Shown: positions 1 through 6,321 of the stretch, piece after piece
Numbering within the stretch: the first letter of the stretch is position 1
How the letters are laid out: the number at the start of each line of letters is the position of its first letter
From: a virus
Taxonomy: Duplodnaviria > Heunggongvirae > Uroviricota > Caudoviricetes
Length of the DNA: 64,000 nt
Virus record (IMG/VR): IMGVR_UViG_3300032167_000002
Location: 216,286-280,285 of that record
Direction: 5' to 3' (one strand)
Program-made: the position numbers and the translations under genes
Notes under the pieces: generated by a model
Database searches by the model: none
Told to the model about the DNA's origin: nothing
The model's input: the letters and a program-made list of their open reading frames with translations, nothing else

Positions 1-55
1 AACCGCCGACGCTAGGAGCTTCAATCCTACGCTCTACCAACTGAGCTACCGGGGC
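1..55 (-). tRNA. tRNA-Phe (GAA), 5' portion, truncated by window edge
   Basis: Reverse complement gives acceptor GCCCCGG, D-arm GCTCAGTTGGTAGAGC and anticodon stem-loop TAGGA-TTGAAGC-TCCTA. Confidence 0.6.
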
Positions 56-74
56 ATAAACTAGGCGCATAAAG

Positions 75-147
75 AAAAGATTGAGGGAATTGAACCCACT
101 ACACATTGTTTAACAGACAATTGCTCTACCAAATGAGCTAAATTTTT
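75..147 (-). tRNA. tRNA-Asn (GTT), AT-rich
   Basis: T-arm GTGGGTTCAATTCCC, D-arm GCTCATTTGGTAGAGC and anticodon loop CTGTTAA. Confidence 0.6.
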
Positions 148-218
148 TCTAAAAGAAAAATTGCTGTGTGCGCCTAAATATATCACCTAAAGGAGAGTTG
201 CCTATGCACAACCCTGGT

Positions 219-291
219 TGCGGTGGGTGGGACTCGAACCCACGATTTCCAGCTTATGAGGCTGGCGACTTAGCCACTTGTCTACCCCGCA
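219..291 (-). tRNA. tRNA with CAT anticodon (Met, fMet or Ile2)
   Basis: T-arm GTGGGTTCGAGTCCCAC and anticodon stem CCAGC/GCTGG around loop CTCATAA. Confidence 0.55.
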
Positions 292-295
292 ATGG

Positions 296-369
296 ATGCA
301 GAGGGTGGATTCGAACCACCGTTCTCCAGCTTATGAGGCTAGCGAGATCGGCCTCTTCTCTACTCTGCA
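296..369 (-). tRNA. tRNA with CAT anticodon (Met, fMet or Ile2)
   Basis: Perfect acceptor TGCAGAG/CTCTGCA with CCA encoded, T-arm GGTGGTTCGAATCCACC, loop CTCATAA. Confidence 0.65.
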
Positions 370-636
370 ATATACAAGGGGGAATATTTTTCCGGTCGGA
401 GCCCCCACGACCGCACATGAAAGGAAATGAAAACCGCAATCAGCGGTTGGTAAATAATTACAAATATTTTTCCGTTACAGCTGATTGGAAAAATACCTAC
501 TCGGTGGTCAGCCTTTTGGAAGAAGTGTGTATAGAGATTGTCGCGATCCACTTCAGCTCTCTACTGCCTCATCGCTCTTAGTCTATGCCCCACCACAGAA
601 CATAGAACCCACGGTATCTCATTGTAATTATTCTGG

Positions 637-710
637 TCCCTCTGAGTGGGCTCGAACCACTGACCTGCCGGGTATGAACCGGCCGCTCTGACCAACTGAG
701 CTACATAGGG
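637..710 (-). tRNA. tRNA with CAT anticodon (third copy)
   Basis: D-arm GCTCAGTTGGTCAGAGC, anticodon stem GCCGG/CCGGC around loop TTCATAC, T-arm AGTGGTTCGAGCCCACT, CCA encoded. Confidence 0.65.
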
Positions 711-883
711 ATATGAAAATGTTGGGTAGCTGCCCTTGTAAGCACGGTACGTCGGCTAAGGCACACATTGAGTACCTACAACAGTTTATAACCAAAAAAC
801 CGTTGCCAAACAAAGCGATTCTTTCGTCTCCTCTTCCACGCCCGATTTTTCCGCTACGAGGTATCGGGAACATACCTTTATGG

Positions 884-957
884 CGACACCTACGGGACTT
901 GAACCCGTGACCTCCGGCGTGACAGGCCGGCGTTCTAACCAACTGAACTAAGGTGCC
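884..957 (-). tRNA. tRNA-Asp (GTC)
   Basis: Acceptor GGCACCT/AGGTGTC, D-arm GTTCAGTTGGTTAGAAC, loop CTGTCAC, T-arm ACGGGTTCAAGTCCCGT, CCA encoded. Confidence 0.7.
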
Positions 958-1028
958 ATATAAGTGGTGAGATTGGTGCAAGGCTCTCACCAAGCCCCAG
1001 TATGGGTTATATACCACGGAGGTATTGG

Positions 1029-1101
1029 CAGCTTCGACGGGGATCGAACCCGCGATCTCCAGTGTGACAAACTGGCGAGCACTCCGCTGCTCCACGAAGC
1101 T
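1029..1101 (-). tRNA. tRNA-Asp (GTC), second copy
   Basis: Acceptor AGCTTCG/CGAAGCT, loop TTGTCAC, T-arm GCGGGTTCGATCCCCGT, CCA encoded. Confidence 0.65.
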
Positions 1102-1382
1102 ATATGTAAGATACTAAAGGCTAAGCGGATACATTTTTCAGAACCACTTTAAAGGCGTAGGAAACCCAACCTCACTTACCTCACCTACTTAGCCGGGCGA
1201 TTGGACCTGACCCGTTTCAGTATCTTTTTAGTGTAAGTTTACTTTGCTTCTTTATATAGCGTTTTCCACTAAGCCACATATCTAACGCTGTTTGTCTATG
1301 ACGCACATTGTTTTGCCGGTGGTAGTTTAACTTACAAATCCATGTTAACGCTTTTATCAATGCCGCCCAAGAGGGCTGCTGG

Positions 1383-1455
1383 TGACCCCACGGAGAATCG
1401 AACTCCGGTTTCGAGCTTGAGAGGCTCGCGTCCTAGACCGCTAGACGACGGGGCC
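1383..1455 (-). tRNA. tRNA-Glu (CTC)
   Basis: Glu-type D-arm GTCTAGCGGTCTAGGAC, anticodon stem CGAGC/GCTCG around loop CTCTCAA, T-arm CGGAGTTCGATTCTCCG, CCA encoded. Confidence 0.65.
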
Positions 1456-2083
1456 ATAAAGGAGGGCGACTTTGTCTTCTGTCCTCGGAGCGCGACTCCG
1501 GTGGGATTTCAACCCACGATTCCCTCTATAAAAATGTTTTTCGACAGCTTCTTCATCTTCTACGGCTTCCTACTTCATTATAGCCGGAATTCTGCGCTTA
1601 GGTACTGTTGTATCTACCCACGTAGCCCTCTTGCTTGAGGGGAGAAGAAATATGGACTATTCCAACTTATCCACTTTACTATCTAAAGCCTTTTTGTCAA
1701 AGGGCAGTTGGCTACCCAAAGTCCGGGACAAGGGAACGAGGACCCAGCTTTTTACGATGTCCCATATCTGCAGGATTCTACCTTAACCTGCCGGTAGTTG
1801 TGATTTCAGCTGACACAACCAGCTACGGGGAATATCCCCGATCCTCCTTGGTGGACCCGTCCTATGAGTAGCGATCTCATAGTCAATCTCCTCTTTCCAG
1901 TTGCGGAGCCAGCCCAGATGGGAATGCAGGCGATACTCGCGATTATCGCTCTAACGGGTCTGCTTTATAATTGTTTTCGCACCCGGCGCATAATAAGGAC
2001 CATGCACTGAAACCCACGACTCATTGTGCAGGTAATCGCTCCTGCCGGTCTGTTGTTAGTCAGGCTAACCGCAACCTCAATGG

Positions 2084-2157
2084 TGACCCCAGGGAGGCTC
2101 GAACTCCCATTTACAGCGTGAAAGGCTGTTGTCACTGACCTATTAGACGATGGGGCC
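2084..2157 (-). tRNA. tRNA-Glu (TTC)
   Basis: D-arm GTCTAATAGGTCAGTGAC, anticodon stem ACAGC/GCTGT around loop CTTTCAC, T-arm GGGAGTTCGAGCCTCCC, CCA encoded. Confidence 0.65.
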
Positions 2158-4647: not shown

Positions 4648-4918
4648 AGATGGAACTGTGATTATGGCAGCCACAGGCCCACATCTACCACAGTGGCTTT
4701 TAAGGGATTTTTCTCAGATGATAACCCACCATCTACTCCATGCGAATGAAAGGAGTAGTGTTTAGCTTTGGGTCAGCTAACCGCACATTTGTTGATTGCT
4801 GGAATTTTTGCTTTTCCAATAGTTATGGCTTATATTATACAGAGAAGCTACATAACTGGAACCTCTGGAGGTTGGTTTAGTTTAAGGTCTCTCGTCACTC
4901 CAACAAACTCGACCTTGG

Positions 4919-4991
4919 CTGCCCCGGTGGGGCTCGAACCCACGACATCCAGATTAACAGTCTGGCGCTCTACCGACTGAGCTACAGGGCA
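4919..4991 (-). tRNA. tRNA-Asn (GTT), second copy
   Basis: Acceptor TGCCCTG/CGGGGCA with CCA, D-arm GCTCAGTCGGTAGAGC, loop CTGTTAA, T-arm GTGGGTTCGAGCCCCAC. Confidence 0.7.
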
Positions 4992-5300
4992 ATATTTAGT
5001 TGCCATTTTGGGATGGGTATTCCCCGGTTACATGAGTCCATGGCTAGACCCGGATACTTCTCGCTTGCATCTGCCGTCGTACTTTTGGTCCCACCCAAGG
5101 TATACGAGATTCTACCTTTCTGTGTTGATATAACACATATGTAAGGTGAGAAGATGATCGAAGTCCCGGACCAGCTGCTACCTGCGTCAACTTGATGAGA
5201 GCTTCTCAGAAATGGATCTTATTCTCAAGTACTTCACCCTCGAGGCATTAGCAGAATGTCGAGTCATTTCTCTTGAGGAGAGTTTTCACATTTCCTTTAC

Positions 5301-5340
5301 CTTACATATATATTATATCATATTTTTTTATAAAAATCAA
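5301..5340 (-). promoter_or_regulatory. AT-rich early promoter copy
   Basis: Same 40-bp consensus; lies inside the tRNA array. Confidence 0.6.
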
Positions 5341-5366
5341 ATAAGCACTTTTGCCCTTGATTTTTA

Positions 5367-5420
5367 TTTTGCCAAGACGGAATTTGACATACGCTGCTCT
5401 ATCCAGCTGAGCTACGCCCC
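5367..5420 (-). ncRNA. tRNA 5'-half-like fragment with no T-arm following
   Basis: Sequence GGGGCGTAGCTCAGCTGGATAGAGC; a GC hairpin GGGACCTTCGGGTCCC lies just upstream on the minus strand. Confidence 0.25.
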
Positions 5421-5477
5421 TCATATCAGGGACCCGAAGGTCCCCTTAGTAGTTCACCTACGCCACCTTGCCAGGTG

Positions 5478-5540
5478 ATGGGAGGGACGGTTGGACTCGA
5501 ACCAACGACCTGCGGCACCACAAGCTCGTCATAATTGCTG
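5478..5540 (-). ncRNA. tRNA 3'-half-like fragment (T-arm, acceptor 3' strand and CCA) with no matching 5' half
   Basis: T-arm GTTGGTTCGAGTCCAAC, acceptor 3' strand CGTCCCT, then CCCA. Confidence 0.25.
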
Positions 5541-5611
5541 TTACCGTCTTTTTTACAATGGAAAAGGTTGTATGGAGAAAGAAAGCAATCCGTGCATATC
5601 ACTTTCTTTAC

Positions 5612-5651
5612 CTTACATATATATTATAACATATTTTTTTTGAAAAATCAA
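5612..5651 (-). promoter_or_regulatory. AT-rich early promoter copy
   Basis: Same consensus. Confidence 0.6.
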
Positions 5652-5662
5652 GAAAGATTTTT

Positions 5663-6058
5663 TTATTCAGCAGGATTTTCAGAAGCCTCAGTCAAAAATG
5701 CGCCGACCTTATCAATCTCGTCTTCGAACATCATCTGCTCGTAACCAACGACTTTTACGGTCTCCACGATCCCAGGATTCTCTTCGCTGTCGCTGAACTG
5801 TAATCCTTCCGGAAGCACGCCGCCGCAAATATCATCGGTCAGATCGCTCCAATCCTCATACAGATAAAAAGGATTGACGACGCCGTCTTCCGCAGCGGTC
5901 TTCACCACTTCATCGATCTCGAATACGCCACCACAACAGGAGCAAATTACCTCATCACGGTATGCGATACCACACAGCCAATCTCCCGGATTTTCCGGGT
6001 CGGCAAAAACAACTTGCTTTGGTTTATCGAAGTAATATCGTTTTTCCATCGCTATCAT
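5663..6058 (-). CDS. Hypothetical acidic early protein (131 aa)
   Basis: ORF with upstream AT-rich promoter and Shine-Dalgarno-like AAAGGAAAGG; starts MIAMEKRYYF. Confidence 0.6.
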   Translation of the reverse strand: MIAMEKRYYFDKPKQVVFADPENPGDWLCGIAYRDEVICSCCGGVFEIDEVVKTAAEDGVVNPFYLYEDWSDLTDDICGGVLPEGLQFSDSEENPGIVETVKVVGYEQMMFEDEIDKVGAFLTEASENPAE

Positions 6059-6073
6059 TTCCTTTCCTTTATC

Positions 6074-6111
6074 TTACATAAATATTATAACATATTTTTT
6101 TATAAAAATCA
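6074..6111 (-). promoter_or_regulatory. AT-rich early promoter copy driving 5663..6058
   Basis: Consensus followed on the minus strand by AAAGGAAAGG then ATG. Confidence 0.6.
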
Positions 6112-6249
6112 AGAAAGACTTTTTAATGGCGATAGTGTCGCTCCGAACGACATCTTTCATTGAGTGTTTCACCCTACAAAGGACTACTCGTTCAATTACT
6201 TCCTCCTCGATCCACGGAGGTGGTTTTACCTTAAACTAACTACCGGTGG

Positions 6250-6321
6250 CAGGGGAGTAGGGATTCGAACCCCAATACACAGTTTTGGAGACTGTAGTCC
6301 TAGCCGTTAGACGACTCCCCT
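6250..6321 (-). tRNA. tRNA-Trp (CCA)
   Basis: Perfect acceptor AGGGGAG/CTCCCCT with CCA, anticodon stem ACAGT/ACTGT around loop CTCCAAA, T-arm TGGGGTTCGAATCCCTA. Confidence 0.7.

Follow-up and report, generated by a model that had tools for sequence, protein, structure and literature searches.

The 64,000-nucleotide (nt) stretch of phage DNA analysed here, referred to as the window (IMG/VR record IMGVR_UViG_3300032167_000002), begins inside an array of transfer RNA (tRNA) genes that occupies positions 1–6378 on the minus strand and also holds conserved structured RNAs between the tRNAs (Table 1). Genes were called with two independent predictors, ARAGORN and the Rfam tRNA model at its gathering score. 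ARAGORN reports 17 tRNA genes at 74–6321 and Rfam reports 18 within 6.3 kb, all on the minus strand; beyond the ARAGORN set, Rfam adds a tRNA cut by the window edge (1–55) and a weak element at 4115–4182 (X2). Canonical genes number 17 (16 complete, plus tRNA-Phe cut by the window start), and CCA is encoded by 15 of the 16 complete ones. An earlier inspection of the sequence by eye (the original prediction) had described a minus-strand array of about 24 tRNA genes with several non-canonical members. Automated prediction upholds the array at 17–18 called genes and confirms every isoacceptor that had been listed (Phe, Asn twice, CAT three times, Asp twice, Glu CTC and TTC, Ala GGC and TGC, four Leu, Trp); the rest of the count of about 24 corresponds to real sequence features, namely X1, X2, X3, a permuted element (element A), and orphan T-arms.

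Table 1. Features of the minus-strand array and its upstream border, in window coordinates.
Feature	Positions	Strand	Caller or score	Remarks
tRNA-Phe(GAA)	1–55	minus	Rfam, 34.4 bits, truncated	5′ part only, edge-cut; loop TTGAAG
tRNA-Asn(GTT)	74–147	minus	ARAGORN, Rfam	second copy
tRNA(CAT)	215–291	minus	ARAGORN, Rfam	adjacent pair with next
tRNA(CAT)	293–369	minus	ARAGORN, Rfam	adjacent pair with previous
tRNA(CAT)	634–710	minus	ARAGORN, Rfam	third copy
tRNA-Asp(GTC)	881–957	minus	ARAGORN, Rfam	one of two
tRNA-Asp(GTC)	1026–1101	minus	ARAGORN, Rfam	one of two
Element C	1229–1354	minus	model R1, 123.5 bits	pseudoknotted RNA, roughly 125 nt; between Glu(CTC) and Asp
tRNA-Glu(CTC)	1380–1455	minus	ARAGORN, Rfam	
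Orphan T-arm-like hairpin	1500–1518	minus		CGTGGG TTGAAAT CCCACC
tRNA-Glu(TTC)	2081–2157	minus	ARAGORN, Rfam	
29-codon open reading frame	2160–2249	minus		just after P5, directly before Glu(TTC)
Promoter P5	2292–2331	minus		
X3	2367–2438	minus	28.4 bits	degenerate tRNA-like, anticodon TCA
tRNA-Ala(GGC)	2537–2615	minus	ARAGORN; below Rfam threshold	79 nt; atypical D arm; G3.U70
tRNA-Leu(CAG)	3133–3219	minus	ARAGORN, Rfam	
Orphan T-arm	3267–3283	minus		GGAGG TTCAAAT CCTTC
tRNA-Leu(AAG)	3427–3513	minus	ARAGORN, Rfam	A34
tRNA-Leu(CAA)	3645–3731	minus	ARAGORN, Rfam	
X2	4112–4184	minus	Rfam tRNA model, 31 bits	tRNA-shaped
X1	4196–4269	minus	ARAGORN, Rfam	tRNA-shaped; 3 nt after Ala(TGC)
tRNA-Ala(TGC)	4273–4350	minus	ARAGORN, Rfam	
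Element B	4432–4468	minus		37-nt hyper-conserved motif, GGTGGTTGGCAACTCCATCAGTACATAAATAAGTTGC
tRNA-Leu(TAG)	4565–4647	minus	ARAGORN, Rfam	
tRNA-Asn(GTT)	4916–4991	minus	ARAGORN, Rfam	first copy
Promoter P4	5301–5340	minus		
Element A	5372–5552	minus		circularly permuted tRNA-like RNA; YrlA-like topology
Promoter P3	5612–5651	minus		drives element A via conserved leader of ~65 nt
131-residue open reading frame	5663–6058	minus		inside array, downstream of P2; partly conserved in L002
Promoter P2	6073–6112	minus		fifth copy, missed in original prediction
tRNA-Trp(CCA)	6247–6321	minus	ARAGORN, Rfam	first tRNA of array
Promoter P1	6339–6378	minus		earlier listed as 6341
Intrinsic terminator	6390–6427	minus		of upstream gene; upstream border of array

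The structured elements were compared with the corresponding loci of relatives, which were drawn from IMG/VR and GTDB contigs and labelled L001–L144. The closest long relative is 138.8 kb in length and is represented by loci L007 and L121. An exact 40-mer from 171–210 has no match in the metagenome collection, and a close relative of the window phage was not found among deposited phage genomes.

Element A begins with an outer helix (AAGACGG/CCGUCUU), continues through a T arm and the acceptor 3′ strand followed by C and CCA to a 59-nt loop, and resumes with the acceptor 5′ strand, a D arm and the terminal strand of the outer helix, so that it has the order of a permuted gene (3′ half, CCA with linker, 5′ half). 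A covariance model built from three lineages (R2) finds 20 strong full-length matches, 18 of them distinct, in which 98% of cells are paired and compensatory changes occur in 22 of 27 pairs; the closed acceptor stem covaries in all eight of its pairs. No shuffle out of 500 reaches the observed level, and slid controls are paired at ~45%. CCA directly follows the 8-nt 3′ strand in 11 of the 18 distinct versions, and the loop consists of CCA alone in three. The motifs 5′ AAAAGRC, CAGCAAU, and 3′ GYCUUG are conserved, and the 5′ end reads AAAAGRCNNN(A)ACAGCAAU in all versions. Up to three copies are present per contig. They have either a promoter and leader of their own, or a start 6–18 nt past a −10 box together with an end 3–10 nt before a tRNA (Gln, CUA suppressor, Ile, His, Asn, or Met). 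A scan with a 14-base pattern for element A was too unspecific, giving mostly chance matches; re-screening of the pattern loci with R2 left 17 matches at E ≤ 1e-4, on other phage contigs, most of them large.

Element C was searched with covariance model R1, built from ten versions, which gives 33 matches in relatives (21 distinct) and reaches members whose marker protein is merely 30–38% identical. Paired cells amount to 97.5%, and 14 of 23 pairs show compensatory changes. The 5′ helix GCGUU/AACGC forms a pseudoknot and covaries even though it lies outside the search model, and two loop positions change together from U/U to C/C, split 9 to 9. In L007, element C is flanked by the same neighbours, with Glu-CTC 27 nt and Asp 8 nt away. 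A search of Rfam returned only two chance-level matches to unrelated families, and none of 50,697 deposited phage genomes matches it. Element C is also carried by six contigs that had been binned into unrelated bacterial metagenome-assembled genomes (MAGs). These are L139–L144 (JAFXOY010000124.1, JAGBVU010000010.1, JAZONV010000125.1, JAZQHA010000051.1, CAYLJU010000010.1, CAMELE010000001.1), from Clostridia, Bacteroidales, Acutalibacteraceae, Muribaculaceae, and Mollicutes bins; because each holds a tRNA array of the same type, they are probably mis-binned phage contigs.

Conservation of element B exceeds that of the adjacent tRNA. The motif is found in 19 IMG/VR contigs, all of this phage family, and in every relative it lies 2–6 nt ahead of a tRNA, usually Ala-TGC and also Leu, whereas a 75-nt insert separates it from the following tRNA in the window. 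One clean double substitution (GCAAC/GUUGC to GCGAC/GUCGC) distinguishes near-identical relatives. Element B can be drawn as an H-type pseudoknot, the putative second helix of which never varies. Rfam gives no match to it at E ≤ 10, and neither B nor C has a described counterpart in Rfam 15.

X1 and X2 differ from canonical decoding tRNAs in having neither a 7-nt loop with U33 nor an encoded CCA. The anticodon loop of X1 is 6 or 8 nt and contains AGGAGG; a tRNA-like element occupies this position in all lineages, with acceptor stems that covary freely and irregular anticodon loops. X2 has an 8-nt loop that lacks U33, and this loop (AGUAAUAGG) is invariant, whereas compensatory changes occur in every stem across four lineages. 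Tandem stop triplets, UAA-UAG, are seen in it. From these features, X1 and X2 are predicted to be tRNA-shaped RNAs incapable of decoding. A 117-nt segment after tRNA-Trp (6130–6246, minus strand) starts CCGGTAGTT... as in X2, includes AAGTAAT, and gives a better fold than shuffled sequence does (z = −2.6); relatives do not conserve it, and it may be a diverged X2-like copy.

The array contains five copies of a promoter with the form TTGATT, 17-nt spacer, TATAAT, and a TG extension. The four copies placed at 2292, 5301, 5612, and 6341 in the original prediction are confirmed, and the copy at P2 is added. Of nine further copies in the window, eight lie on the minus strand as far as 23984 and the ninth on the plus strand (26880–26919), which makes fourteen near-identical copies of a strong sigma-70-type promoter, thirteen of them serving minus-strand units; the part downstream of the promoter (ATATATGTAAGGTAAAGGAAA) is also conserved among copies. 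Strong terminators were not found inside the array. Neither open reading frame (ORF) within the array has a Pfam match, nor do the flanking ORFs; the 29-codon ORF is conserved in relatives at the DNA level.

The order of tRNAs downstream of a 420-residue gene (6785–8047) is shared by relatives (L001–L007, L012, L015, L140–L142, L144) and runs Trp, Asn, Leu-TAG, Ala-TGC, the X1 position, Leu-CAA, Leu-CAG, Ala-GGC, Glu, Glu, Asp, Asp, Met three times, Asn or Ile, and Phe. In L007/L121 the array continues for ~10 kb with 21 more tRNAs (Ser, Ser, Thr, Val, Gly, His, Arg, Arg, Gly, Ile, Pro, Pro, Gln, Gln, Tyr, Thr, Ser, tRNA(CUA), Leu-TAA, Gly, Lys), giving at least 38 in all. Individual genes diverge to different degrees. 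The Phe fragment at the window edge is 88–90% identical to the Phe genes of L012 and L015, and Ala(GGC) is 87% identical in L007. In the second Asn(GTT) gene the acceptor stem consists entirely of A/U pairs, and no CCA is encoded; a gene at the same position in L007 (17098–17170) has an identical anticodon arm and reads GAT (Ile), so that comparison of the two sequences indicates a one-base anticodon switch. Relative to L002 and L007, the window has Leu(AAG) as an insertion.

These longer arrays bear on two claims of the original prediction. The absence of a canonical CUA suppressor holds for the window, in which a tRNA with anticodon CTA was not found by ARAGORN, with introns also allowed. 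It is not supported as a trait of the phage itself, in that the syntenic array of the close relative holds a tRNA(CUA) in its distal part (L121 1721–1795; others in L027, L028, and L139) with the Gln-like features U1.U72 and G73. The suppressor is probably missing from the window because the window starts inside the array, and the Gln-type tRNA(CUA) of this phage presumably lies in the distal array, outside the window. Nor did a particular investment in isoacceptors for Leu, Glu, Asp, Asn, and Met find support, since full arrays cover nearly all amino acids; the apparent bias arises because only part of a near-complete tRNA set is seen. In codon usage, the Leu isoacceptors of the window suit the Leu codons of early genes (CTG 34%), not those of late genes (TTA 45%).

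The phage origin of the element is borne out by matches to portal and virion-protein families in the window and by ~80 related terminase loci in IMG/VR, many of them on contigs of 120–197 kb; it is a phage of a rumen/gut lineage of roughly 190 kb. Plus-strand genes at 44–64 kb carry many in-frame TAG codons. There are 53 in-frame TAGs in the plus-strand late genes and none in the early genes; of the Gln codons of late genes, 22% are TAG, against none of those of early genes. Where the terminase has TAG, relatives have CAA/CAG; in the reverse direction, in-frame TAGs of relatives face a Q of the window in 252 of about 325 cases. The recoding of TAG that the original prediction supposed is thus upheld, and these alignments indicate that TAG specifies Gln in late genes; early genes use the standard code. 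Recoding of TAG to Gln in large gut phages has already been described (bioRxiv 10.1101/2021.08.26.457843). The Jade, Sapphire, Lak, and crAss-like phages of that work are likewise ~190–200 kb and come from animal gut or rumen, likewise confine TAG as a sense codon to structural and late genes, with the standard code in early genes, and carry a suppressor tRNA among many phage tRNAs, whereas the window itself is without one. Structured RNAs such as those inside the array are not described by Borges et al. (bioRxiv 10.1101/2021.08.26.457843). The array is an ordinary feature of recoded large gut phages; the conserved structured RNAs between its tRNAs match no RNA family described so far.

The remaining elements behave differently. 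The loop of X3 has 7 nt; the acceptor stem is weak, the D stem is nearly lacking, and CCA is not encoded. X3 is absent from L002 and L007, where another block occupies the site. The orphan T-arms and most long spacers have no similarity to relatives and are not repeated within the window. Folding z-scores are near 0 in 11 of 13 spacers, those of 6130–6246 and 3515–3644 being about −2.6. Spacers were considered as large structured RNAs and rejected, as they show no excess folding energy, conservation, repeats, or match to ROOL or GOLLD. X3, the orphan T-arms, and most spacers are probably debris of duplication, insertion, and decay, a reading that the insertion of Leu(AAG) and the presence of moved conserved blocks fit. 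One such block (GGCTTCAGTGCATGGTCC.TATTATGCG..., 1983–2079, minus strand) follows Glu(TTC) in the window, whereas in relatives (L002 13111–13208; L007 about 15290–15350) it lies after Ala(GGC) and before the promoter, which indicates that conserved spacer modules move within the array.

Taken together, positions 1–6378 very probably represent the promoter-proximal third of a tRNA and noncoding RNA array of ~17 kb with at least 38 genes, belonging to a rumen/gut phage lineage of roughly 190 kb in which TAG is read as Gln in late genes. The array lies in the early minus-strand region and would be transcribed from its five promoter copies into long untranslated transcripts, which host RNase P and 3′-processing enzymes would cut at tRNA boundaries. 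Cutting would free 17 conventional tRNAs, nearly all with encoded CCA, as part of an almost complete decoding set of the phage's own, and would release the co-transcribed conserved structured RNAs alongside them as by-products with defined ends. A, X1, and X2 would then be selected tRNA mimics and B and C selected RNAs that are not tRNA-like, whereas X3, the orphan T-arms, and most spacers would be unselected. If RNase P cut element A once, at the acceptor 5′ strand, its encoded CCA would become exposed as a tRNA-like end. Candidate roles of A, B, C, X1, and X2 include decoys or substitutes against host defence, tethering in the manner of Y RNAs, and processing or stabilising of transcripts.

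Several points weigh against this account. The suppressor is seen only in relatives, and its presence in this phage is deduced from synteny. Cleavage by RNase P and 3′ processing is suggested by tRNA-like geometry and by the known maturation of tRNA operons. Because the alignments of A and C came from fitting to covariance models, their pair counts are biased upward; the slid controls and the unmodelled pseudoknot helix of C nevertheless argue that the covariation is not an artefact. Finally, the assignment of debris depends on non-conservation at ~60% marker-protein identity, and some of this material may be fast-evolving functional RNA.

It has to be asked whether the non-canonical elements are RNAs in their own right at all. 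They could all be decaying tRNA pseudogenes with neutral remnants as spacers, in a cluster governed by birth and death. X3 and the orphan T-arms, which are lineage-specific, would be expected from such a process, as would the unconserved spacers that show no excess folding energy and the variation in gene content among relatives (the Leu(AAG) insertion and moved blocks). These elements look like the decayed remnants that the original prediction had named as a refuting outcome. The others do not: A, B, C, X1, and X2 are conserved, the helices of A, C, X1, and X2 survive many double substitutions in lineages in which the marker protein is only 30–63% identical, element B is better conserved than the tRNA it precedes, and element A is multicopy per genome and tied to promoters. 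Decay as a general explanation is therefore very improbable. Even less credible, to the point of being nearly dismissed, is the idea that the half-elements serve as exons, joined for decoding and possibly into a suppressor, of tRNA genes that contain introns or are split or permuted. Permuted orders are known from circularly permuted, two-piece transfer-messenger RNA (tmRNA) genes and from the permuted tRNA genes of Cyanidioschyzon, in which T arm, acceptor 3′ strand, CCA, short linker, and acceptor 5′ strand follow one another. Element A shares this order, and taking out its linker would yield a molecule in two pieces whose acceptor end is normal, as in permuted tmRNA. However, element A has neither the pseudoknots nor the tag reading frame of tmRNA (for which there is no room), it is not matched by the Rfam permuted-tmRNA model, and unlike permuted tRNAs it has no bulge-helix-bulge. 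A decoding role for element A was rejected, as its ends form no consistent 7-nt loop with U33 across members, one isolated apparent case aside. Three intron-containing candidates do appear once ARAGORN is allowed introns up to 700 nt; these were also rejected, because they have the lowest scores of all (95–99) and span promoters or an ORF. Group I and group II introns are unmatched at E up to 10, no Rfam intron family is found, and an ordinary tRNA(CUA) exists in the distal array of the relative. Introns, which the original prediction had suggested looking for, and split tRNA genes thus have no candidate with a credible score.

If the elements are functional, the question becomes what kind of RNA they are. 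Element A could be a true bacterial-type Y RNA (YrlA) acting with Rsr/Ro60 and an exoribonuclease, as in Salmonella, Deinococcus, and mycobacteriophages. Rfam offers no match to it other than YrlA (RF02553; 38.6 bits, E = 3e-7), the topology agrees (a tRNA-like module of T arm, D arm, and closed acceptor-like stem on a long helix of the 5′ and 3′ ends), and YrlA reportedly occurs in 22 phages and is cut by RNase P and given a CCA in Mycobacterium smegmatis (PMC4201824). Whereas M. smegmatis YrlA receives CCA after the RNase P cut, element A encodes it in 11 of 18 versions. The match falls far short of the gathering score of 69. The motif GNCGAAN0-1G, defined as the proposed Rsr contact (PMC4201824), is absent from all versions of element A, in which AAAAGRC, CAGCAAU, and GYCUUG are conserved instead. 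Published YrlA genes lie within 4 kb of rsr, but no TROVE/Ro60 match occurs among 65 window ORFs (64 from 6.4–44 kb and the 131-residue ORF of the array). Element A is also multicopy per genome and placed at transcription starts, as a leader of tRNA transcripts and directly before tRNAs. Tandem tRNAs can mimic the YrlA model (Chen et al., 2014; PMC4201824), and partial matches to it do occur at tRNA pairs of the array; element A is a single unit. On its sequence and structure, element A is best described as sharing the YrlA topology and failing three defining features of YrlA, and its identity as a Y RNA is improbable. Somewhat more plausible, and still unlikely, is that host defences directed at tRNAs (anticodon nucleases, PARIS, retron effectors, Schlafen-type nucleases) are countered by A, X1, and X2 acting as decoys or substitutes, with the canonical tRNAs replacing cleaved host tRNAs. 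The principle is established for phage tRNAs (PMC10264068, PMC11464382, PMC11555353), A, X1, and X2 are placed under early promoters, and X1 and X2 are tRNA-shaped and yet have anticodon loops that would not be normal nuclease substrates. The invariant loop of X2 and the conserved motifs of element A, however, are more suggestive of a specific partner than of a generic decoy. Tentatively, and with only a little more weight than the decoy proposal, element A may be a new class of phage RNA: a multicopy permuted tRNA mimic at the starts of tRNA operons, opened by RNase P into a two-piece molecule ending in N-CCA that acts in trans and, with the stop-triplet loop of X2 and with element C, itself confined to these arrays, belongs to an RNA toolkit linked to the code switch. 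Opened element A might then be a decoy, might assist tRNA-binding enzymes or defence nucleases as a cofactor, or might be chargeable and work as an adaptor.

An analogue of the account preferred here, that of conserved RNAs co-transcribed with a large tRNA set, is the tRNA cluster of phage T4, the stable RNAs 'species 1' and 'species 2' of which are small RNAs co-transcribed with tRNAs and freed by tRNA-processing enzymes; phage lineage and host differ. ROOL and GOLLD are large structured RNAs of phages and prophages that often lie near tRNA islands (PMC12286853). They resemble the present elements in being structured noncoding RNAs beside or inside phage tRNA clusters, rumen samples included, and differ in size, A, B, and C being 37–190 nt and ROOL/GOLLD about 580 to over 800 nt (PMC12286853). 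The Rfam models of ROOL and GOLLD match neither A, B, or C nor any other part of 1–7500. The tRNA arrays of recoded phages are usually treated as lists of anticodons, to which at least three RNA families with strong evolutionary evidence of structure are now added. Should these RNAs prove to be processed and active, the control that phages exert over host translation or RNA metabolism would go beyond supplying tRNAs. A, B, and C offer compact, well-defined new targets for structural and biochemical work. A likely misannotation is also corrected, in that lack of a suppressor would not be a trait of the phage.

Other observations concern the window and related arrays. The region 26000–42000 is GC-rich (about 48%), with a strongly negative AT skew and only weak 3-base periodicity. 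Suspicious at first sight, it is best interpreted as a series of small plus-strand genes, with abutting or overlapping ends, behind the plus-strand promoter copy, which drives the gene block at 27–42 kb; few of these genes have a family match. tRNAs with a wobble A are Leu(AAG) in the window and Ser(AGA), Thr(AGT), Arg(ACG), and Gly(ACC) in relatives (sites at L002 16617–16704 and 16917–16993 and at L019 11821–11895). All except Arg would require A-to-I editing outside the usual bacterial TadA target. In distant members of the family, ARAGORN finds tmRNA genes within the arrays (L025 19508–19857; L037 18969–19307), and the tag of one of this pair ends NHLAA. In L020 (about 13260–14050), element C and tRNA-Asp are separated by an inserted ORF that has an HNH-like motif, which suggests invasion of the array by a homing endonuclease.

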